From positions 2,279-66,278 of the forward strand of contig JBDGYE010000009.1 in NCBI GenBank assembly GCA_039584255.1: a stretch of 64,000 bases of DNA, written 5' to 3'. Origin of the DNA: Gemmatimonadota bacterium. Its GTDB lineage: Bacteria > Gemmatimonadota > Gemmatimonadetes > Palauibacterales > Palauibacteraceae. Of the stretch, positions 1,064 to 33,886 are shown one piece after another. Below the pieces are notes generated by a model. The model made no database searches, was not told the DNA's origin, and saw only the letters and a program-made list of their open reading frames with translations. The position numbers and the translations under genes were made by a program. Within the stretch, counting starts at the first letter, position 1; each line of letters opens with the position of its first letter.

Positions 1064-2089
1064 ATGTGGAGCGGCTACACGAACGGCGCCGTGCTGCCTA
1101 GCCTCCAACTCGTAGACCTGGAGACGATCCGTGACGCGGGTCACCGGATAGCGGGAGCGGTTCGCCGGACCCCGCTGCTGCCGGTGGCGTGGGGGGATGC
1201 CGGCCTCGGGCCATCTCCCCGCAGGGGAAGCCTGTGGCTGAAGTGCGAGTGCCTCCAGTTCGCCGGCGCATTCAAGCTTCGCGGCGCATACAACTTCATG
1301 GCCAGCCTCGACCCGGCAGCCAGGTCGGCCGGCGTCATCACGTACTCGTCCGGAAACCACGCACAGGGAGTGGCCTGGGCGGCCCGTGCGTTCGGAGTCC
1401 CCGCCACGGTCGTCATGCCGGTCGACGCTCCGGGCATAAAGGTAGAGGCTGTGCGGCGCCTCGGCGCCCGTCTGGAGCAGGTGGGGACGACGACGATCGA
1501 TCGGAAGGCGCGCGCCGAGGCGATCCTGGCAGAGCGCGGGGGTACAATGGTGCCTCCGCGCATCATAGCCGGTCAGGGCACGGTGGGCGTGGAGATCTTC
1601 GAACAGCTGACGGAAGCAACGAGTCGGGCGCTGCTGGACGGCGATCTTCGCCTCGTGGCGGTGCCCATCGGCGGCGGCGGCCTCATATCCGGGGTGGCCG
1701 CGGCGCTCAGGGCTCTGGTGCCTGACGCTCGAATCGTGGGAGTGGAGCCGGAAGGCGCGGCGAAAATGAGCCAGTCGCTGGAGGCGGGCCGGCCGATCAC
1801 GCTCGAGACGATCGATACGATCGCGGACGGCCTGAAGCCGGTACGTCCCGGGGATCTCACGTTCGCGCACTGCCGTGAGCTGGTGGATGAGGTCGTGACG
1901 GTTCCCGACGGCGCGATCCGGGACGCGGTGTTGTGGTGCTATGGGCGGCGGTTGGTTGTCGAGCCTAGCGGGGCCGCGACGGTAGCGGCACTGGCGACCG
2001 GAGCTGTCGTGCCGCCCGACGATGGCGACACCGTGGTCGTGCTTTCAGGGGGGAACCTGGACCCGGGACTTCTACGGGAATGGCTGTAG
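1064..2089 (+). CDS. PLP-dependent threonine/serine dehydratase family protein (threonine ammonia-lyase-like)
   Basis: 341-aa ORF with the PLP-lysine motif FKLRGAYN, then SSGNHAQGVA and the glycine loop PIGGGGLISG typical of fold-type II PLP dehydratases. It starts 2 nt after the gyrA stop. Confidence 0.8.
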   Translation: MWSGYTNGAVLPSLQLVDLETIRDAGHRIAGAVRRTPLLPVAWGDAGLGPSPRRGSLWLKCECLQFAGAFKLRGAYNFMASLDPAARSAGVITYSSGNHAQGVAWAARAFGVPATVVMPVDAPGIKVEAVRRLGARLEQVGTTTIDRKARAEAILAERGGTMVPPRIIAGQGTVGVEIFEQLTEATSRALLDGDLRLVAVPIGGGGLISGVAAALRALVPDARIVGVEPEGAAKMSQSLEAGRPITLETIDTIADGLKPVRPGDLTFAHCRELVDEVVTVPDGAIRDAVLWCYGRRLVVEPSGAATVAALATGAVVPPDDGDTVVVLSGGNLDPGLLREWL

Positions 2090-24853: not shown

Positions 24854-25011
24854 TCGGATATGATCTTCGCAACGGTTCCGGGAAAGCGCCCCGGGACGTG
24901 CCGGGTCCGGCTGGGCGCCGGAAGTTCCGATACGGCCGACGGAGCGTCAAATTCGGATATGGCGCAGGTGGCGTCAACCGCGCCCTCGGAATCCGGAATC
25001 GGAGCGCGCTA

Positions 25012-26439
25012 ATGAGACTCACAGCTCGCCGAGGACTTGTCATCGCCTCTGTCCTCGTCCTCGCCGCGGCGGTGGCGGGAGCGGTCCGAGCCGTCGACTT
25101 CTTCACGGGCTGGTTCTATCAGCTAGCCTGGTTTCCGTTGCTGGTAGCGTGCGACTCGGCGCTCAGCCTGCGCACGGGGAAGTCGGCTCTACTCGATCGT
25201 CCGGCCTTCGCGATCTCGCTCTTCCTGTGGTCGGCGCCCGCATGGTTCCTTTTCGAGGCGGCCAACCTGCGGCTCGCGAACTGGTACTACGTATTCGTCC
25301 CCGTATCGAGAGCGGCCCGTTGGGGGGGGACCGTGGTCGCGTTCAGCACCGTGTTGCCAGCCCTCTGCCTGGCATACCGTTGGGGATCCGCCCTTGGCAT
25401 AGCATCCGGATTCCGCGGGCGGGGCTTCTCGGTCAGATCAGTTCACCTGCATCTGCTGCGAGGCTTCGGAGCCGCTTTCCTGATCCTGAGCCTGTGGCGA
25501 CCCGAGACCTTCTTTCCCCTCATCTGGGGATCAGTAACGTTGCTGCTGGAGCCACTCAATTACCGGAGAGATCCCGCACGTTCGCTCTTCGGCGACATCT
25601 CACGGGGCCAGTGGATGCGCTTGGTTCGGCTCATGGTGGGAGGCGCGGTCGTGGGGCTGGTGTGGGAACTTCTGAACTCGATGGCCGGCGCGCGGTGGAT
25701 CTACACTGTTCCGGGGCTGGAGCACTGGAAGGCGTTCGAGATGCCCCTGCCTGGGTTCCTCGGCTTTCCGGTGTTCGCACTGGACGCCTTCGTCATCTAT
25801 CAAAGTCTGGTACTGGCCGGGGTCGCTGCCCCCGGCTGGCACTCCGACACACGGGTGGCGACGGGCCCGCCTCGGCGGCACCGCGCAGCCCTGGCCGCGC
25901 TGCTGGCCGCCGGGTTCAGCATCGCCGTCATGGCCGGAATCGACCATTGGACGGTGGACTCTGTCCGGCCGCGCCTCGAGACGCTGCCGGGTGTGGACGC
26001 AGATCTGGCCTCCCGACTCGAGTCGGGTCGAATTCACTCCGTCAGATCACTCGCGGAGTCGGATACTCGTGACCTGAAGGACCGAACCGGGCTGGAGCCC
26101 CGAGCGACGGGCGACCTCATCGCCGCGGCCCGAATGACTCTCCTGCGTGGCCTCGGTTCGGAGCACACGGCGGCCCTCTGGCGCGCCGGGATCGTCTCCG
26201 CCTGCGACCTCGCGGCTACCGACGCCGGGGTCATCGCCGAGGCCGTTCGGCGGGCAGACCCTAGACCCTACGTTGGAAAGCCGGCCAGGGTACGCGTCTG
26301 GCGGCGGGCGGCACTCGCCGAGTGCGGCGAAGCGACCGAGGTGACCTTGCTCGCGGGAAGGGCCGAACGGATCTTGCCGGCGAGCGGCAGCCCGTGTGGG
26401 GCCGCTCCTTCGAGCACGAGCTACCTGCACGAAAGGTGA
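25012..26439 (+). CDS. polytopic membrane protein with C-terminal helix-hairpin-helix-like (DUF4332-like) region
   Basis: From ATG 25012 there are about 8 hydrophobic helices. A soluble tail follows with repeated motifs of the type SLAESDTRDLKDRTGL / RGLGSEHTAALWRAGIVSACDLA. The family assignment is tentative. Confidence 0.5.
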   Translation: MRLTARRGLVIASVLVLAAAVAGAVRAVDFFTGWFYQLAWFPLLVACDSALSLRTGKSALLDRPAFAISLFLWSAPAWFLFEAANLRLANWYYVFVPVSRAARWGGTVVAFSTVLPALCLAYRWGSALGIASGFRGRGFSVRSVHLHLLRGFGAAFLILSLWRPETFFPLIWGSVTLLLEPLNYRRDPARSLFGDISRGQWMRLVRLMVGGAVVGLVWELLNSMAGARWIYTVPGLEHWKAFEMPLPGFLGFPVFALDAFVIYQSLVLAGVAAPGWHSDTRVATGPPRRHRAALAALLAAGFSIAVMAGIDHWTVDSVRPRLETLPGVDADLASRLESGRIHSVRSLAESDTRDLKDRTGLEPRATGDLIAAARMTLLRGLGSEHTAALWRAGIVSACDLAATDAGVIAEAVRRADPRPYVGKPARVRVWRRAALAECGEATEVTLLAGRAERILPASGSPCGAAPSSTSYLHER

Positions 26440-26441
26440 CG

Positions 26442-27689
26442 ATGCGCCGATCTTCAACCGCCGGGCCCGGGATGCCCCCCGAGCTGTCGTCTGAGACCGG
26501 CAAGACGGGCGCCCCCCACGGGTCCTTCCGCGAAGACGAGCAACCTCCGCCTGCACCCGCCTCGCAGGGTGCTTCGTTCGGACGCTTCTTCCTCCCCGGT
26601 CCGACGGAGGTCCGTCCCGAGGTTCTGCGCGCCATGGTGCGGCCCATCATCGGGCACCGGGGCGACGAGGCCAAGAGGCTGCTGGCAGGCCTGCAGCCGA
26701 TGCTGCGCCAGATCCTCCAGACCTGTCGTCCCGTCTATATATCGACTTCTTCGGCGACGGGATTCATGGAGGCCTCGGTGGTCAACCTGAGCCGCCGGCG
26801 GATCCTGTGCCTGGTGAACGGAGCCTTCGGCGAGCGTTTCGTGAAGATCGCCCGGCGGTGCGGCCGTGAGGCCGACGCGCTTCGGGTGCGCTGGGGAGAG
26901 CCCAACACCCCGGAGCAGCTTAGGACCGCTCTGAAGCAAAGCCCGGAGACCTACGACCTCGTGACCGTCGTCCATTCTGAGACCTCCACCGGAGTACTGA
27001 ACCCCGTGCGAGACTTGGCCGCCGTGGCACGGGAGTTCGAGGAGGTTCTCCTGGCCGTCGACGGAGTCACATCCGTCGGCGGGGTTCCCGTCGCCTTCGA
27101 TGAGTGGGGACTCGACTTCCTGCTGACAGGATCGCAGAAGGCGATTGCCCTGCCGCCGGGCCTGGCCTTCGCCGCGGCGTCGGAAAGGGCGATCGCGAGG
27201 GTCGCCGAGGTGCCCGCCCGGAGCTTCTACTTCGATCTTCGGGAGTTCGAGCAGAGGGCGGTGGAGCACCAGACCACGAACACGCCGGCCGTGTCGCTTC
27301 TGTATGCCCTCGAGTACCAGCTCGAGGCCATTCGCGCCGAAGGCCTGCAAGCTCGCTGGGACAGACACGTCCGCATGGCGGAACGAACCTGGGAATGGGT
27401 GAACGAGACGGCGGCCGCATTGGGAGCTCCGTTCGGCGTCCTGGCGCCGGCGGGCTTCCGGTCACCGACCGTGACGACGGTATCGCTCCCCGATGGGCTT
27501 TCGGGCACCGCGATAGCCGCAGCCATGGCTCAGCGAGGCTATACCATCGCACCGGGCTACGGAGAGCTCAAAGAGACGACGATCCGCGTCGGTCACATGG
27601 GAGACCACACACTCTCCGAGCTGGATGGGCTCCTGACGGCGCTGACCGACGCGCTGGCCAGTATGGTGGCGAGCCGTCGGGAGGACTGA
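26442..27689 (+). CDS. class V aminotransferase (serine-glyoxylate / phosphoserine aminotransferase-like)
   Basis: FLPGPTEVRPEVLRAM N-terminal motif, HSETSTGV, and the PLP-lysine region GSQKAIALPPGLAF. ATG 26442 lies 2 nt after the upstream stop. It sits immediately upstream of serA. Confidence 0.8.
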   Translation: MRRSSTAGPGMPPELSSETGKTGAPHGSFREDEQPPPAPASQGASFGRFFLPGPTEVRPEVLRAMVRPIIGHRGDEAKRLLAGLQPMLRQILQTCRPVYISTSSATGFMEASVVNLSRRRILCLVNGAFGERFVKIARRCGREADALRVRWGEPNTPEQLRTALKQSPETYDLVTVVHSETSTGVLNPVRDLAAVAREFEEVLLAVDGVTSVGGVPVAFDEWGLDFLLTGSQKAIALPPGLAFAAASERAIARVAEVPARSFYFDLREFEQRAVEHQTTNTPAVSLLYALEYQLEAIRAEGLQARWDRHVRMAERTWEWVNETAAALGAPFGVLAPAGFRSPTVTTVSLPDGLSGTAIAAAMAQRGYTIAPGYGELKETTIRVGHMGDHTLSELDGLLTALTDALASMVASRRED

Positions 27690-27692
27690 AGG

Positions 27693-29291
27693 ATGGCTAT
27701 GGGAACTAAGAGGCTGCTTGTAGCCGATCCGCTGGCCGAGGAAGGGATCCGGATCCTGGAGGAGGCCGGCGATCTACACGTCGAAGACTATTCCTCGCGC
27801 TCACGGGAGGAGCTCAAGCGCGGCCTGACAGGCGCCGCCGGGCTGATCGTCCGCAGCGGGACGCGAGCCGACGCGGAGCTGCTCGAAGGGGCCGACTCGC
27901 TGGAGGTGATCGGGAGGGCTGGCGTCGGTCTGGACAACATCGATGTCGAGGCGGCCACCCGCCTCGGAATTGCGGTCTTCAACGCTCCCGCCGGCAACAC
28001 CGTCTCAACCGCCGAACTCGCCTTCGCATTGCTCCTGTCGGTCGCCCGTAGGATTCCGGCCGCCGACAGATCGCTTCGCGATGGCCACTGGAATCGCAAA
28101 GGCTTCCGGGGAAGCCAGCTCGGCGGCAAGACCCTAGGAGTGATCGGAGCCGGACGCATCGGGACCGAGATCATCGCCCGCGCCCGGGCGTTCGGGATGA
28201 AGGTCCTGGTCAATGACCCCTATCTGATGCCGCAGCGAGCCGAAGATCTCGGGGCGGAGCTCCTGGCTCTCGAGGCCATGCTGCCGAGGTGCGAGTTCGT
28301 CACGCTCCACGTGCCGCTTACGGATGACACGCGCGATCTCATCGGCGCGGCGGAGCTCGCGCTTATGAAGCCTTCGGCGATGCTGGTCAACGCTGCCCGC
28401 GGAGGGATCGTCGATGAGGAGGCGCTCGCCGAGGCCCTCAATACCGGAGGACTGGCCGGAGCCGCCCTGGATGTCTTCGCGGTGGAGCCGCTTCCCGCGG
28501 ATCATCCGCTCCGCTCGGCGCCGGGCCTGGTCCTTACGCCGCACCTCGGCGCCCAGACGCCCGAGGCCCAGAGAGAAGTGGCGATCGAGATCGCTGCTTC
28601 GGTCCGGGACGCTCTCCTCCGCGGCGATTATCGAGCCGCCGTGAACGTACCGGCATTCGGCGCTACCGACCTCGAGCGCGTCGGACCTGTCCTCGACCTG
28701 GCCCGAAGGCTGGGCGTGCTGCTGGCCGTGATCACGGATGGCCGCAGCGGCCGCGTCGACGTCCGACTGGGCGGAGGTCTGGAGCGAGGCCTACCGCTGG
28801 TGGCGGCCGCTGCCATGGAGGGATACCTCCGACGCTCCCTGGCCGGCCCGCTGAACCTGATCAACTCGATGGTCCTGGCGGCAGAGCGGGGCATAGAGGT
28901 CACCCGTTCCCGTACCGGAAGTGTCACGGGGTACGCCGGTATCATCGAAGTTGGGGCATCGGAAGCCCATGGCGAGCTGGTAGTGGGAGCCCTGGAGGAC
29001 TATGACCATCCGCGCTTGCTGCGGATCGGCCGTTACCACGTCGACGTTGAGCCGCGGGGCGATATGCTCCTCGTTCGCAACCGCGATGTTCCCGGTGTGA
29101 TCGGCGACGTGGGAACCTTGATCGGCGATTCGGGCGTCAATATCGCAGAGTTCCATCAGGCTCGTGACACGGACACCGGAGAGGCGCTCGCGGTGCTCGT
29201 ACTGGACGAGTCGGTGCCTGCCGAGCTGCTGGAGGCTCTACGGGAGCTGCCCGCGGTCACCGACGCGCGTCAGGTTGCGCTAGGACGCTGA
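27693..29291 (+). CDS. serA: D-3-phosphoglycerate dehydrogenase (long form with ACT domain)
   Basis: NAD motif GVIGAGRIGTEI, catalytic NAARGGIVDE...TPHLGA, and a C-terminal ACT-like segment (LLVRNRDVPGVIGDVGTLIGDSGVNIAEF). Confidence 0.9.
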   Translation: MAMGTKRLLVADPLAEEGIRILEEAGDLHVEDYSSRSREELKRGLTGAAGLIVRSGTRADAELLEGADSLEVIGRAGVGLDNIDVEAATRLGIAVFNAPAGNTVSTAELAFALLLSVARRIPAADRSLRDGHWNRKGFRGSQLGGKTLGVIGAGRIGTEIIARARAFGMKVLVNDPYLMPQRAEDLGAELLALEAMLPRCEFVTLHVPLTDDTRDLIGAAELALMKPSAMLVNAARGGIVDEEALAEALNTGGLAGAALDVFAVEPLPADHPLRSAPGLVLTPHLGAQTPEAQREVAIEIAASVRDALLRGDYRAAVNVPAFGATDLERVGPVLDLARRLGVLLAVITDGRSGRVDVRLGGGLERGLPLVAAAAMEGYLRRSLAGPLNLINSMVLAAERGIEVTRSRTGSVTGYAGIIEVGASEAHGELVVGALEDYDHPRLLRIGRYHVDVEPRGDMLLVRNRDVPGVIGDVGTLIGDSGVNIAEFHQARDTDTGEALAVLVLDESVPAELLEALRELPAVTDARQVALGR

Positions 29292-29329
29292 CCCGGCGCC
29301 GGCCCCCGCTCACCGGCCCCGCTTCCGAC

Positions 29330-30787
29330 TCAGTAGGTTGTCATGCCGGGGTCGATCCGCAGGGCCCACTCGTTGATGCCGCCCCTGAGATTCACCGCGC
29401 CACCGATTCCTGCGTTCCGCAGCATGCCGACCGCGATGGCACTACGGTGGCCGGTGCGGCAGTACACGACGAGCTCCGCCTCTGGATCCAGCTCGTCCAC
29501 GTGGGAGAACAGCTGCCCCAGCGGAATCAGTCTCGCGCCGGCGAAGCCCAGGTTGCTGATGGACCACTCGTGCGTCTCCCGAACATCGAGCAGCTCGAGC
29601 CGCTGCCCAGTGTCCAGGCGGGCCTTGAGCTCCGCGACGTCGATCTCCGGGACCGGTGGAAGGACTGACTCCGTCCCGGCTGCCTCCCCGCGCACACCGC
29701 AGAACTCTTCGTAGTCGATGAGTCGGGTGATCGACGGGTTGTCTCCACAGACCGCGCACTCCGGATCCCGGCTCACGTCCACCGCCCGGAACTCCATGCT
29801 CCGCGCATCGACGAGCAGGAGCCGGCCCACCAGAGGCTCGCCGATTCCCAGGATGAGCTTCATGGCCTCTGTGGCCTGAATCGTTCCGACGAGACCCGGC
29901 AGGACTCCCAGCACCCCCGCTTCGGCGCAGCTCGGTACCATCTCCGGTGGCGGCGGGTCTCGGAACAGACATCTGTAGCACGGTCCTTCGCGGTGGGCGA
30001 AAACGGAGGCCTGTCCCTCGTACCGGAAGACGGCTCCGAAGACGCAGGGGATGCCCAGCAGAACGCATGCGTCATTGATCAGGTACCGGGTCGGGAAGTT
30101 ATCGCTGCCGTCCAGAACCAGATCCCAGCCTGACAGGATACTCAGGGCATTACCCGAATCGAGCCGAGCCTCCAGCGCGACGATCTCGACGTCCGGGTTC
30201 AGGCTCCCGAGCCGCTGGAGCGCGGACTCTGCCTTCGGCACCCCCGTGGAAGGCGTATCGTGAAGTATCTGGCGGTGGAGATTGGAGAGTTCCACCCGGT
30301 CTGAATCAACGATGCCTATCCGTCCGACACCGGCCGCGGCCAGGTACAGCGCCGCCGGAGAGCCCAGCCCGCCGGCGCCGGCAACGAGCACTCCCGATTC
30401 CCGCAGGCGCTTCTGCCCTTCGACCCCTATTCCCGGCAGGATGAGCTGCCGGTGATAGCGCAGCGCCTCCTCGGGCGTCAGCTCGGTCGGGCGGCCCCCC
30501 CCTTCATCCGATCCGCCAGCGATGGATGGGACGATGGTTAGAACGGCCGGATCGTCGATGCGGCGCTCGACCTCGTCGAGGCCGCGCACGTCGCGGCCGT
30601 CCAGATAGAGGTTCACGAAGCCGCGGACGTGACCGTCGTCGGCGAACAGCCGGCCACCGAGCAGCGGCTCCTCCTCCGATATCCGCTTCAACGCCTCCTC
30701 GACGGAGCTGGCCTCGACCTCCAGCTCCTGCCGGCCGTCCACGAGCTCCCGCAGGGGGGTGGGGACCTGAACCGTTACCCGTGCCAT
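29330..30787 (-). CDS. tri-domain fusion: ThiS/MoaD-like ubiquitin-fold domain (ends ...IAGG) + MoeB/ThiF E1-like adenylyltransferase + rhodanese (MoeZ-like)
   Basis: Residues 1-92 (30512-30787) look like a MoaD/CysO beta-grasp ending VLTIVPSIAGG. The E1 domain follows (RYHRQLILPGIGVEGQ, VAGAGGLGSPAALYLAAAGVG, CYRC...ECAVCG zinc motifs, SCAEAGVLG). A C-terminal rhodanese carries the active-site loop YCRTGHRS. Confidence 0.85.
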   Translation of the reverse strand: MARVTVQVPTPLRELVDGRQELEVEASSVEEALKRISEEEPLLGGRLFADDGHVRGFVNLYLDGRDVRGLDEVERRIDDPAVLTIVPSIAGGSDEGGGRPTELTPEEALRYHRQLILPGIGVEGQKRLRESGVLVAGAGGLGSPAALYLAAAGVGRIGIVDSDRVELSNLHRQILHDTPSTGVPKAESALQRLGSLNPDVEIVALEARLDSGNALSILSGWDLVLDGSDNFPTRYLINDACVLLGIPCVFGAVFRYEGQASVFAHREGPCYRCLFRDPPPPEMVPSCAEAGVLGVLPGLVGTIQATEAMKLILGIGEPLVGRLLLVDARSMEFRAVDVSRDPECAVCGDNPSITRLIDYEEFCGVRGEAAGTESVLPPVPEIDVAELKARLDTGQRLELLDVRETHEWSISNLGFAGARLIPLGQLFSHVDELDPEAELVVYCRTGHRSAIAVGMLRNAGIGGAVNLRGGINEWALRIDPGMTTY

Positions 30788-30835
30788 TCGCCTTCCTCGA
30801 ACCCGCCGCTGCTGTCGGTCTCCCGCGTTCCGGCT

Positions 30836-31252
30836 CTACCCCGCCGCACTCGCTGTGTGCACGTTCCGAGGCGACCACTCCCCGACGCCGAGCAACCCCT
30901 TCCCGTCGATAGCCACAATCAGATAGTGGTAGCCCGGCCAGGCGAGCCTCCGATCCGTTCGAGAGGGAGAGGGACGACCGTCGGGATGTGAGTGGAAGAA
31001 TCCCAGGAGAGCTGCCTCGCCGGAACGCTCGCGCCGCATCAGCCGGCATACGTCCTCCGGGTCGAGCCGATAAGAGCGGCGCCTGTCGAGCGCGGCGTTG
31101 GGCAGCGGCTTGGCATCGGTAACCACAGCCGCCGCGCCGCTCTCGATCCCGAGCAGCGCCCCGCAGGCCTCCTCGGGGTAGGCCCCTTCGCAATGGGCCG
31201 TCAGCCGATCCCAGGCGTCCGCAGCGAAGGCCAGGGCCCCGAAGGCCCGCAC
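30836..31252 (-). CDS. JAMM/MPN+ (Mov34) metalloprotease
   Basis: Complete JAMM signature: EEACG, then HSHPDGRPSPSRTD (HxHx7Sx2D). GTG 31252 follows the rpe stop by one base. The longer ORF overlaps rpe. Confidence 0.85.
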   Translation of the reverse strand: MRAFGALAFAADAWDRLTAHCEGAYPEEACGALLGIESGAAAVVTDAKPLPNAALDRRRSYRLDPEDVCRLMRRERSGEAALLGFFHSHPDGRPSPSRTDRRLAWPGYHYLIVAIDGKGLLGVGEWSPRNVHTASAAG

Positions 31253-31253
31253 C

Positions 31254-31928
31254 TCAGGCTTCGACGGCAAGCGACTTCCTGATCGCCTCGTAGTTCTCGC
31301 CGATGGTTCCAGGCCCCCGGAACACCGACGAGCCCGCGACCAGCACATCGGCTCCGGCCCGAGCGGCCGCGCGGACGTTGTCGGGACCGATTCCCCCGTC
31401 CACCTCCACGTGGAGCTTCTCGATTCCCATCTCAGCCTGCATTTCCCGCACACGCCGCACCTTCGTCAGGACCTCGGGAATGAAAGCCTGGCCGCCGAAG
31501 CCCGGGTTCACGGTCATGCAGAGCACGAGATCGATTGCCGGGAGCATCTCGCGCAACGTCTCGGGCGCAGTAGACGGGTTGAGCGCCACGCCGACCTTGC
31601 AGCCCATGCGCCGGATCTCGTGGATGTCCCGATGCAGGTGCCAGGCGACTTCCTGATGGATCGTGATCAGGTCCGCGCCCGCTTCTGCGAAGGGCTCCAG
31701 GAACTGCGCCGGGTTGTCGATCATCAGATGGACGTCCAGGAACGAGGCGGACACCGCGCGCAGCGACTTCAGGACAGGTATCCCGATGCTGAGGTTTGGA
31801 ACGAAGTGGCCGTCCATGACGTCTACGTGGAACCACCTCGCGCCTGCCTCCTCGGCCTCTCCTACCTGCTCGCCGAGGCGGGCGTAGTCCGCCGCCAGGA
31901 TCGACGGGGCAACCACGTACGGAACCAT
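31254..31928 (-). CDS. rpe: ribulose-phosphate 3-epimerase
   Basis: From ATG 31928: MVPYVVAPSILAADYARLGE...FHVDVMDGHFVPNLS...MTVNPGFGGQAF. The start overlaps the kbl stop (ATGA). Confidence 0.9.
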   Translation of the reverse strand: MVPYVVAPSILAADYARLGEQVGEAEEAGARWFHVDVMDGHFVPNLSIGIPVLKSLRAVSASFLDVHLMIDNPAQFLEPFAEAGADLITIHQEVAWHLHRDIHEIRRMGCKVGVALNPSTAPETLREMLPAIDLVLCMTVNPGFGGQAFIPEVLTKVRRVREMQAEMGIEKLHVEVDGGIGPDNVRAAARAGADVLVAGSSVFRGPGTIGENYEAIRKSLAVEA

Positions 31929-33154
31929 CAGATCACCCCCAGCCTCTTGCCCACCTTCTCGAGCGCCCCGAGCGTCCTGTCCAGGTGCTCGCGCTCGTGG
32001 GCAGCGGAGATCTGGCACCGGATCCGGGCCACACCCTTGGGCACGACCGGGAAGCCGAAGCCGATGACGAAGACGCCTTCCTCCAGCAGCTCGCGGCTCA
32101 TCCGGATGGCGTCTGACGTCTCGCCGATGATCACGGGGACGATCGGCGTGTCGCCCTCTATAGGGTCGAAACCTAACGCTGTCAGCTGGTTCCGGAAGTA
32201 GGCCGTGTTCTCCCGGAGTTTCGTGACCCTCTCCGGATGTGCCTCGAGGTAGTCGATCGCCGCGAGGGCGCCACATGCGGAATGAGGCGGAACGGCGTTG
32301 GTGAACAGCTGGGTCCGGGACCGCTGCACCAGATAGTCCACGACTGGCCGCGAGCTGGCAGTGAAGCCTCCGGCCATGCCGCCGAGCGCCTTTCCAAGCG
32401 TCGAGGTTATGATGTCCACCTCACCGTGCATGCCGTAGTGCTCCGGCGTTCCGCGGCCTGTGTCGCCCAGCACGCCCGTGGCGTGGGAGTCGTCGACGAC
32501 CATGATCGCGTCGTAGCGGTTGCATAGCCGGCGGATCTCGGGAAGCGGCGCGATCTCGCCTTCCATGCTGAACACGCCGTCAGTGATGACGAACCGATGA
32601 CGCGCCCCCTTCGTCGTTCTCAGCACCTCTTCCAGTGAGTCCATGTCCATGTGCCTGTAAATGTGCCGCCCGGCCTTGCACAACCGGATGCCATCGATGA
32701 TCGAGGCGTGGTTCAGTTCATCGCTGATGAGAGCATCGTCGTCGGTCAGGAGCGGAGCGAACAGGCCCTCGTTGGCGTTCCAGCACGAGGTGTAGGTGAT
32801 CGACGCCTCGGTCTCCAGGAAGTCCGCGATCCGGTCTTCAAGCTCGCGGTGAACGTCCCACGTGCCGCATATGAAGCGTACCGAGGAGGTCCCGGCTCCG
32901 TACTTGGAGGCCCCCTGCCGAACGGCCTCCACTACATCCGGCACATCGCACAGACCGAGGTAGTTGTTGGAGCACAGGTTCACCGTTTCGCCGAACTCCT
33001 CCAACTGGACCACGGCGCCCTGCATTCCCTGTATGTGCAGGAGAACCTTGTAGACACCCTGGTCCTGCATCTCCCGAAGCTCCGACGCGAGCCTCCGGTT
33101 CAACCCCGCGTTGACGGCGCTGCCGGCGACATCGCTCTCCTGGTAGAGGACCAT
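31928..33154 (-). CDS. kbl: glycine C-acetyltransferase (2-amino-3-ketobutyrate CoA ligase) / alpha-oxoamine synthase family
   Basis: CSNNYLGL, DELNHASIIDG, DDSHATGV, and the PLP-lysine region TSTLGKALGG. Confidence 0.85.
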   Translation of the reverse strand: MVLYQESDVAGSAVNAGLNRRLASELREMQDQGVYKVLLHIQGMQGAVVQLEEFGETVNLCSNNYLGLCDVPDVVEAVRQGASKYGAGTSSVRFICGTWDVHRELEDRIADFLETEASITYTSCWNANEGLFAPLLTDDDALISDELNHASIIDGIRLCKAGRHIYRHMDMDSLEEVLRTTKGARHRFVITDGVFSMEGEIAPLPEIRRLCNRYDAIMVVDDSHATGVLGDTGRGTPEHYGMHGEVDIITSTLGKALGGMAGGFTASSRPVVDYLVQRSRTQLFTNAVPPHSACGALAAIDYLEAHPERVTKLRENTAYFRNQLTALGFDPIEGDTPIVPVIIGETSDAIRMSRELLEEGVFVIGFGFPVVPKGVARIRCQISAAHEREHLDRTLGALEKVGKRLGVI

Positions 33155-33214
33155 TCACCTCCTCCGATCGTTGTATGCATCCCCGGTCGATGGGTCCGGG
33201 TCCCGAAGAAGATC

Positions 33215-33886
33215 TCAGTAGTACTCCTCGGCGGACAGGTCCGAGATCGCCATCTCATCCACCTCGATCACGGGTCGCGAGCCATAGGAGCCGCACAGCG
33301 TGAAGCCTCTGAGGGTCCCCCGCACGCGCACGAGCCGGTCGGTGCCCTCGACGGAACCGAGGTCCGGAGAAGCCCCCCTCAGCGCGAACGGACGTTGATT
33401 GCGCAACCAGCCCGGGCCGAAGAGAACGCAGCCGCCGACCTGGGCTACAGTCCCTTCGCCGAGAGCGCGCATCGGTGAAAATGCGCCCGAATCCACGGCA
33501 ACGATGCCTCCCAAGGCCCGTCCCTCGGCCGTCCGCACCGGATAGCGTCCCGGACTCTCGACTCGCAGCGGCCTCGCCTCGTAGAAGCTGACCGGACTGC
33601 CCGAGCACATGGTCTCGTAGACGCTGCGTCGGGCCGAGAGATGGATGACGGTGTCTCTCAGCTCGATGATCGCGGTGTCCAATCGGCCGCATGCGTCCGG
33701 AGCCACAGGCCCGGCGAACTCGAAAGAAAAAAGCTCGCCGACGACTACCGTCTCTGGGTACGCGGCCCACGTGACGAGTGCCGGACCCTCCGTAGGCTCT
33801 CCTATCCGCCAGCAGGCGCCGAGCAGAAGGAGCCCCGCCGTCGCAATCGCGGTTCTCGTGCTCACGGCATTATCCTCGGGCCTCAC
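33215..33886 (-). CDS. hypothetical lipoprotein
   Basis: Signal peptide with lipobox LLLLGAC|W. The 223-aa ORF has ordinary composition and no recognised family. Confidence 0.45.
   Translation of the reverse strand: MRPEDNAVSTRTAIATAGLLLLGACWRIGEPTEGPALVTWAAYPETVVVGELFSFEFAGPVAPDACGRLDTAIIELRDTVIHLSARRSVYETMCSGSPVSFYEARPLRVESPGRYPVRTAEGRALGGIVAVDSGAFSPMRALGEGTVAQVGGCVLFGPGWLRNQRPFALRGASPDLGSVEGTDRLVRVRGTLRGFTLCGSYGSRPVIEVDEMAISDLSAEEYY

Follow-up and report, generated by a model that had tools for sequence, protein, structure and literature searches.

How does a carrier protein that is translated in one piece with its own activating enzyme obtain a free Gly-Gly end, and which pathway does it then serve? 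The question is raised by a locus in a 64,000-nucleotide stretch of a Gemmatimonadota bacterium of the family Palauibacteraceae (assembly GCA_039584255.1, contig JBDGYE010000009.1, positions 2,279 to 66,278), which we call the window and whose own numbering is used below. One gene on its minus strand encodes a precursor in which a CysO-type ubiquitin-like (Ubl) carrier is joined by a disordered linker to a MoeZ-type E1 enzyme with a rhodanese domain, and a gene for a JAMM metallopeptidase lies directly upstream of it. We consider it probable that the product of this upstream gene is what frees the carrier. The parts of the system are as follows.

29330-30787, minus strand: fusion gene for a CysO-type carrier, linker, MoeZ-type E1 and rhodanese, an open reading frame (ORF) of 485 amino acids with an ATG start
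30512-30787, minus strand: carrier (Ubl) domain, residues 1-92, with PSIAGG at its end, recognised by Pfam ThiS, by solved relatives and in an AlphaFold2 model
30509-30514, minus strand: predicted cleavage site between Gly92 and Ser93, codons GGA TCG, suggested by the conserved Gly-Gly, the small next residue and the precedent of MoaX
30482-30511, minus strand: linker SDEGGGRPTE, residues 93-102, modelled with low confidence and variable among relatives
29753-30457, minus strand: E1 adenylation domain of ThiF/MoeB fold, residues 111-345, Pfam ThiF 277 bits
29363-29638, minus strand: rhodanese domain, residues 384-475, with active-site Cys443 in CRTGHRS, Pfam Rhodanese 56 bits
30836-31252, minus strand: JAMM/Mec+-type metallopeptidase of 138 amino acids from a GTG start, Pfam Prok-JAB 72.6 bits

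An earlier, sequence-only reading of this DNA had described the ORF as a ThiS-like carrier followed by a MoeB/ThiF adenylation domain with both CxxC pairs and a rhodanese domain, and Pfam and the sequence itself confirm this. Pfam recognises ThiS at residues 6-92 with 26.9 bits (cut-off 22.5), and ThiF and Rhodanese over the ranges listed above. The junction reads ...TIVPSIAGG(92)SDEGGGRPTELTPEEALRYHRQ, such that the carrier is followed by SDEGGGRPTE and then by the usual MoeZ N-terminus, LTPEEALRYHRQ. The CxxC pairs of the E1 are GPCYRC (C270/C273) and ECAVCG (C344/C347), and the rhodanese loop is YCRTGHRS (C443). Across 104 aligned fusions both pairs, loop Cys287 and rhodanese Cys443 are invariant, as are G446 and R448 of the rhodanese and P87, S88, A90, G91 and G92 at the carrier's end. 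Among NCBIfam models, the E1 passes the cut-off of MoeB subfamily PRK05690 (303 bits, cut-off 266).

The beta-grasp fold claimed earlier for the N-terminal domain also holds, given the ThiS match above cut-off, CysO structures as best relatives and a consistent AlphaFold2 model. With the 104 fusions as alignment, that model has a mean predicted local distance difference test (pLDDT) score of 88 for the whole protein; the carrier domain scores 84-94 and its strand-helix order fits the beta-grasp fold, while pLDDT falls below 50 at residues 92-100, so that the linker is modelled as disordered between two confident domains. A fold search with the whole model matched E1 structures only (Uba4, ThiF and MoeB), and ThiF and MoeB structures align with the E1 part at a template modelling score of ~0.95. 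The best solved relatives of the carrier are CysO of Amycolatopsis (4n6e_B, E 6e-9), the MoaD-related Thermus protein 1v8c and CysO of M. tuberculosis (3dwg_C, E 2.5e-5), and by these comparisons the N-terminal domain is supported as a genuine CysO-type carrier. No ATG, GTG or TTG occurs in frame at codons 86-125. A separate internal translation start for a standalone E1 is therefore ruled out, and the E1 is made only as part of the fusion.

An assembly artefact or a missed stop codon is ruled out because the same frame is found in 49 species-level genomes of Gemmatimonadota as well as in many further phyla. A profile search returned 8000 relatives, and the best 120, inspected for architecture, all have the order ThiS, ThiF and Rhodanese at lengths of 465-501 amino acids. 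More than 100 independent protein clusters show these three domains with the same junction. The uninterrupted fusion is carried by at least 49 of 301 Gemmatimonadota genomes, in several families, and when species-representative genomes were scanned it appeared in Gemmatimonadales and in many Acidobacteriota orders; it also occurs in metagenome-assembled genomes (MAGs) labelled Chitinophagaceae, Capsulimonadaceae, Kiritimatiellae, Chloroflexia, Dehalococcoidia and Planctomycetaceae. The fusion is thus neither an artefact nor a rarity, and its architecture is common. Its relatives go by the database names MoeB or adenylyltransferase/sulfurtransferase only, and in the open literature we found no explicit description of a CysO-MoeZ fusion.

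Conservation is concentrated on the carrier side of the junction. All 122 relatives compared retain the motif PS[IV]AGG, near residue 91, and in 117 of these 122 the residue after the Gly-Gly is alanine (50), serine (30), threonine (29) or valine (8). Spacing between the Gly-Gly and the RYxRH motif of the E1 ranges from 9 to 38 residues among the 122, and the linker sequence is not conserved. Other material follows the Gly-Gly in the closest relatives of the carrier domain (P0007, P0025, P0101, P0115, P0152, P0016, P0114, P0082, P0117, P0076, P0099 and P0108), namely a tandem second carrier, rhodanese, NIL-like or TusA-like domains, or Cys-rich tails such as CCCCCCL. The Thermus protein 1v8c, with 168 amino acids and an internal PPVAGG before a second domain, is another blocked Gly-Gly carrier. 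Comparison of these sequences suggests that blocked Gly-Gly precursors may be a general habit of this carrier family.

The presence of a JAMM gene with an intact motif directly upstream of the fusion, also part of the sequence-only reading, was confirmed. Its product scores far above the Prok-JAB cut-off of 25 bits, and direct reading shows the motif EACG...HSHPDGRPSPSRTD (H-x-H-x7-S-x2-D), with its upstream E, to be intact; among solved structures, the protein is closest to 2kcq and 2kks. The minus-strand order kbl-rpe-JAMM-fusion, likewise proposed before, stands as well, with rpe and kbl above their NCBIfam cut-offs. These genes, and the one that faces them, are placed as follows.

31254-31922, minus strand: rpe, ribulose-phosphate 3-epimerase (TIGR01163 270 bits, cut-off 213)
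31928-33154, minus strand: kbl, glycine C-acetyltransferase, first gene of the run (NF005394 522 bits, cut-off 460)
27693-29291, plus strand: serA, 3-phosphoglycerate dehydrogenase, convergent with the fusion and given for context only (TIGR01327 564 bits, cut-off 454)

The pathway that such fusions serve was sought in the gene contexts of 106 fused loci, of which 52 come from the phylum set (including three metagenome/MAG loci) and 54 from a cross-phylum set. JAMM lies directly upstream of the fusion in 104 of the 106 (52/52 and 52/54, respectively). The two exceptions (L094 and L148) have no adjacent JAMM gene and a strong Prok-JAB match elsewhere in the genome, once directly after cysM. A cysM gene precedes JAMM in 98 of the 106 fused loci (49/52 in the phylum set and 49/54 in the cross-phylum set), and the pyridoxal-phosphate (PLP) enzymes that adjoin JAMM-fusion in relatives score best against the CysM model. 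From these contexts, the pathway normally served appears to be CysM-dependent cysteine synthesis.

At the locus in question rpe abuts JAMM and no cysM is present. The earlier remark that no sulfur acceptor is visible nearby is thereby borne out; the acceptor is missing because cysM has been lost from between rpe and JAMM, apparently from the genome too. This genome, which is 89% complete, has five genes of the PALP family, and only one of them (C22:11090-12100) belongs to the CysK/M group. It is also the sole PALP gene that resembles CysM queries in tblastn, is 38% identical to CysM of the locus type and has cysteate synthase (414 bits) and cystathionine beta-synthase (CBS; 403 bits) as its best NCBIfam models, both below cut-off. 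Neither the PALP genes nor tblastn yielded a CysM ortholog in this 89%-complete genome (G000), and none turned up in G135, in G049 or in the closed chromosome CP070722.1 (genome G304), where the gene order is likewise kbl-rpe-JAMM-fusion. The best CysM matches in G049 and CP070722.1 are 40-43% identical, and genomes that bear cysM also hold second copies of the CysK/M family at ~44% identity. A PALP gene within the window (1064-2089) was considered as CysM and rejected, being of the threonine/serine dehydratase type. A CysK-like paralog of ~44% identity is present in six of six same-family relatives checked and was not found here, where it may lie in the missing 11%.

Within the family, the locus exists in a series of states. 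In G086 and G258 cysM lies between rpe and JAMM (kbl-rpe-cysM-JAMM-fusion). The present genome and G135 have kbl-rpe-JAMM-fusion, an order found also in G049, from another family, and in CP070722.1. In G075 the order is kbl-rpe-carrier-E1, with a carrier that ends in VPSVAGG-TGA and an E1 in another frame, and genera g2 and g8 have kbl-rpe-E1. By this comparison, our locus appears to be a derived state in which cysM was deleted between rpe and JAMM. Carrier-stop-E1 pairs from nine other genomes of the phylum (L030-L038) were considered as recent products of fission and rejected, since their carriers are of a different type: these are 30-36% identical, end in AIAGG-stop and are followed within ~10-60 nt by an E1 in the same frame, with no JAMM or cysM within 4 kb. 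That the two pieces share a frame in these pairs is due to the search having joined them so.

Does the JAMM protein cut the fusion? All nine fusion-bearing genomes examined have a Prok-JAB match above 70 bits, and the 13 examined genomes that lack the fusion have none of that strength. JAMM is retained in the four cysM-less genomes that bear the fusion, and G075, which is 96% complete and has a separate carrier with a free Gly-Gly, has no Prok-JAB match anywhere in its genome. JAMM is thus retained in step with the fusion, in support of a cut after Gly92. Because cysM-less genomes would have no carrier-Cys adduct and keep JAMM only if the carrier is fused, these genomes separate a role in maturation from the role known for Mec+. 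Mec+-type enzymes hydrolyse bonds between Gly-Gly and a small residue. On comparative evidence, the neighbouring JAMM protein is supported as the best candidate to cut after Gly92. The idea has precedents. MoaX, a MoaD-MoaE fusion, is cut between Gly82 and Ser83, and the cleavage is necessary for its activity (PMC4326299). In the sections of Iyer et al. (2006) that treat JAB peptidases, these are proposed to cleave off fused ThiS/MoaD domains and so give them a free C-terminus (PMC1779556).

The steps that we envisage are the following. JAMM would cut between Gly92 and Ser93, exposing the Gly-Gly carboxylate of the carrier and freeing the E1. By analogy with MoeZR of M. tuberculosis, the free E1 would adenylate the carrier's C-terminus, and the rhodanese persulfide would convert it to a thiocarboxylate; the same E1 would also activate separately encoded MoaD and ThiS. 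In most relatives the carrier thiocarboxylate would feed the CysM encoded directly upstream of JAMM, and the same JAMM would also release cysteine from the carrier-Cys adduct, like Mec+. In the present genome the candidate clients are the CBS/CysK-like PLP enzyme encoded elsewhere, another acceptor or none, and JAMM would have been retained because the fused state requires it.

The role of the E1 in other pathways bears on this scheme. Only the fused E1 matches the ThiF family above cut-off in this genome, and most genomes of the phylum also have a single match. A separate MoaD is encoded with MoaE and MoaA on contig C17, and ThiS with ThiE and ThiG on contig C25; both carriers end in a free Gly-Gly. 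As the only E1, the fused enzyme must therefore also serve MoaD, for molybdenum cofactor, and ThiS, for thiamine. Three carriers that share one E1 speak against a design with a fixed 1:1 ratio, and freeing the tethered carrier becomes important for cofactor synthesis; the self-contained module of fixed 1:1 stoichiometry that had been suggested from the sequence was not borne out. The genome-wide search for acceptors that the sequence-only reading had recommended gave a divided answer: MoaE and ThiG are present, each with a free-Gly-Gly carrier of its own, and neither CysM nor a TtuA-type enzyme was found. As for a TtuA-type tRNA thiolase, PF01171 PP-loop genes occur just once per genome in the 10 genomes examined, where they presumably encode TilS, and tRNA 2-thiolation of the TtuA/TtuB type is therefore unlikely as the client.

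A stronger form of the proposal can be offered tentatively, and we hold it to be unlikely rather than likely. In cysM-less Gemmatimonadota such as this one, the fusion may have made JAMM, a deubiquitinase-like peptidase, the obligatory maturase of the cell's single E1. An uncleaved, tethered carrier would then block or occupy the E1 dimer, such that synthesis of molybdenum cofactor and thiamine would hinge on proteolysis. The peptidase could be lost only once the fusion is split, as in G075, and the fusion would be a zymogen-like gate or an evolutionary ratchet and not a neutral variant.

Several points weigh against the reading in which JAMM releases a working carrier. Cleavage of the fusion, by JAMM or otherwise, is predicted from comparison. 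In most loci the Mec+ role, hydrolysis of the CysO-Cys adduct, could wholly account for the presence of JAMM, and the argument that separates the two roles draws on few cysM-less genomes and one unfused relative. The lineages compared are related, so the counts given above are not independent events. A CysM gene could sit in a gap of our 89%-complete genome. At the level of family models, the MoeZ equivalog NF005902 scores 441 against a cut-off of 647, and the JAMM protein does not reach the cut-off of the desampylase equivalog. Finally, at 11 of 33 positions conserved in the family this carrier differs from the consensus, the background median being 0.5; either a changed partner or relaxed constraint could account for these departures.

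In one rival reading the carrier, after the loss of cysM, has no client at all and is kept as the translated leader of an essential E1, with JAMM locked in merely to remove it and so let the E1 act on MoaD and ThiS; cleavage would go on, but no sulfur would flow through this carrier. The departures from consensus fit such a history, as do the lack of CysM orthologs in G000, G135, G049 and G304, the single PP-loop gene per genome (and hence no TtuA-type acceptor), the E1 without a start codon of its own and the relatives that later lost JAMM and then the carrier. Nevertheless, G075 keeps an intact separate carrier that ends exactly in GG-stop although nothing forces it to, and every family-invariant carrier residue is kept here. 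H46R, N63D, D64G and D82A are shared across genera, and several departures are common to G135, G075 and a metagenome relative, which looks like a stable altered state and not like decay. Identity of carrier and E1 is 53%/65% with cysM versus 59%/71% and 48%/63% without it, so that the ratio is about equal. We regard a clientless carrier as quite improbable; together with the free-standing carrier of G075, the pattern favours one that is altered and probably still functional over simple decay.

It is also conceivable, though very unlikely, that another protease or self-cleavage cuts the fusion and that JAMM acts downstream, on carrier-amino-acid adducts or modified proteins. The protease that cuts MoaX was never identified (PMC4326299), and since 98 of the 106 fused loci have cysM adjacent as well, a Mec+ role by itself could account for JAMM. 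Against this stand the four cysM-less fusion genomes that keep JAMM and the cysM-less unfused one that lacks it, and the bond after the fusion's Gly-Gly is of the very kind that Mec+-type enzymes hydrolyse.

That the Ubl domain is a permanent regulatory or docking part of the E1 and is never released has some precedent as well: in its section on thiamine operons, Iyer et al. (2006) describe a Campylobacter-type ThiF with an N-terminal Ubl beside a separate ThiS and suggest such another role for it (PMC1779556). However, the carrier here is CysO-like with a strictly conserved Gly-Gly at the junction, the locus lies outside a thiamine operon (a different contig encodes ThiS, ThiG and ThiE), the G075 ortholog is free-standing with a Gly-Gly end and JAMM accompanies the fusion in every genome tested, all of which makes a permanent domain highly improbable.

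Least credible of all is a released carrier that acts as a protein modifier (E2-independent sampylation or TtuB-type) with JAMM as deconjugase, since the archaeal SAMP1, UbaA and desampylase models, although among the best NCBIfam matches in a genome with no sulfur acceptor identified, are all below their curated cut-offs, the ancestral context is clearly cysM and G075 retains the carrier without any JAMM; the conjugation module that the sequence-only reading had thought possible gains no positive support, there being no E2 either.

Carrier release by JAMM, the reading that we prefer, places the locus close to several known systems. In QbsE/QbsD and HcyS/HcyD the carrier is extended past the Gly-Gly by one or two residues, which a JAMM enzyme trims before activation; here the extension is a whole E1 of 393 residues. 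The CysO/CysM/Mec+ genes of M. tuberculosis (Rv1334-1336), together with MoeZR (PMC3227635; 3DWG/3DWM), have the same carrier type, E1 with rhodanese and JAMM type. MoeZR serves both CysO and MoaD (PMC3227635), and the E1 here is likewise shared with MoaD; relatives of the locus also share the cysM neighbour (49/52). Unlike in the mycobacterial route, carrier and E1 are one polypeptide here, which is why an extra proteolytic step of maturation is needed. Our locus has the carrier with its Gly-Gly (internal and not terminal), the E1-rhodanese and the Mec+-type JAMM, and it falls short of a full CysO/MoeZ/Mec+/CysM set because no CysM was found.

MoaX of M. tuberculosis is likewise a Ubl carrier in frame with a partner enzyme, with an internal Gly-Gly followed by Ser, but its partner is the acceptor MoaE and not the E1, and here a dedicated JAMM gene adjoins. 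The general mark of a Ubl precursor cleaved at Gly-Gly, a Ubl whose closing Gly-Gly is internal to the polypeptide and precedes another functional protein in frame, is present. The JAB operons in rows 4b and 4c of Table 1 of Iyer, Burroughs and Aravind (2006) comprise the same gene set, with or without cysteine synthase, whereas the carrier there is a separate gene (PMC1779556). In the passages on these operons the only Ubl-E1 fusion mentioned is the ThiF type of thiamine operons, which the authors read differently (PMC1779556). The present locus is not of that type, with ThiE, ThiS and ThiG on contig C25 and the order kbl-rpe-JAMM-fusion here. The SAMP1/UbaA/HvJAMM1 system of Haloferax is built from the same trio of fold families and supplies the top NCBIfam names of carrier and peptidase, but the organism here is bacterial, the ancestral context is cysteine synthesis and the scores are low (SAMP1 49.2 versus a cut-off of 60, UbaA 330.9 versus 450 and desampylase 89.1 versus 130).

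With the principle predicted in 2006 and the architecture common, nothing here is categorically new. By analogy, the system would follow the mycobacterial CysO/MoeZ/Mec+/CysM route and extend it by a single step, in which the carrier is freed from the E1, and what this locus adds is the cysM-less state and the loss series. Through these it offers a natural dissection of the two possible jobs of the peptidase. If JAMM does cut, this would be a bacterial, polyprotein-style maturation of a Ubl by a JAMM enzyme that follows the same logic as eukaryotic ubiquitin precursors and is widespread in soil phyla. For annotation, naming such genes simply MoeB causes the carrier and the implied cysteine route to be missed, and genomes like this one may be wrongly credited with, or denied, the CysM route.

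Some features of the locus and its relatives remain to be described. In genus g37 of family f6 (G143, G253, G292, G079, G164 and G061) the E1 match is embedded in open frames of 1157-1214 amino acids, which may be a large N-terminal fusion to a MoeZ-type E1 or just long open frames in GC-rich DNA. Intergenic gaps in the present run are 5 nt (kbl-rpe), 1 nt (rpe-JAMM) and 48 nt (JAMM-fusion), and the last contains a Shine-Dalgarno-like AGGAAGG. JAMM has two candidate starts, the GTG at 31252, 1 nt past the rpe stop, and an in-frame TTG at 31270, which would overlap the end of rpe by 17 nt. A promoter and terminator scan of 29100-33500 found nothing, which is uninformative given the 67% GC content of the genome. 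The operon is flanked by ORFs of 223 amino acids (33215-33886, minus strand) and 513 amino acids (24898-26439, plus strand), neither with an NCBIfam match and the former without a Pfam match either.

Synteny of kbl extends across the family, and serA is convergent with the fusion in family relatives as it is here. Directly upstream of serA lies a gene for a class-V aminotransferase, and the pair (26322-29291, plus strand) is convergent to the fusion gene. The aminotransferase is weakly SerC-like (85 bits, cut-off 402), and the neighbourhood of serA is conserved within the family. Together, the aminotransferase and SerA could make O-phosphoserine, the substrate of mycobacterial CysM.

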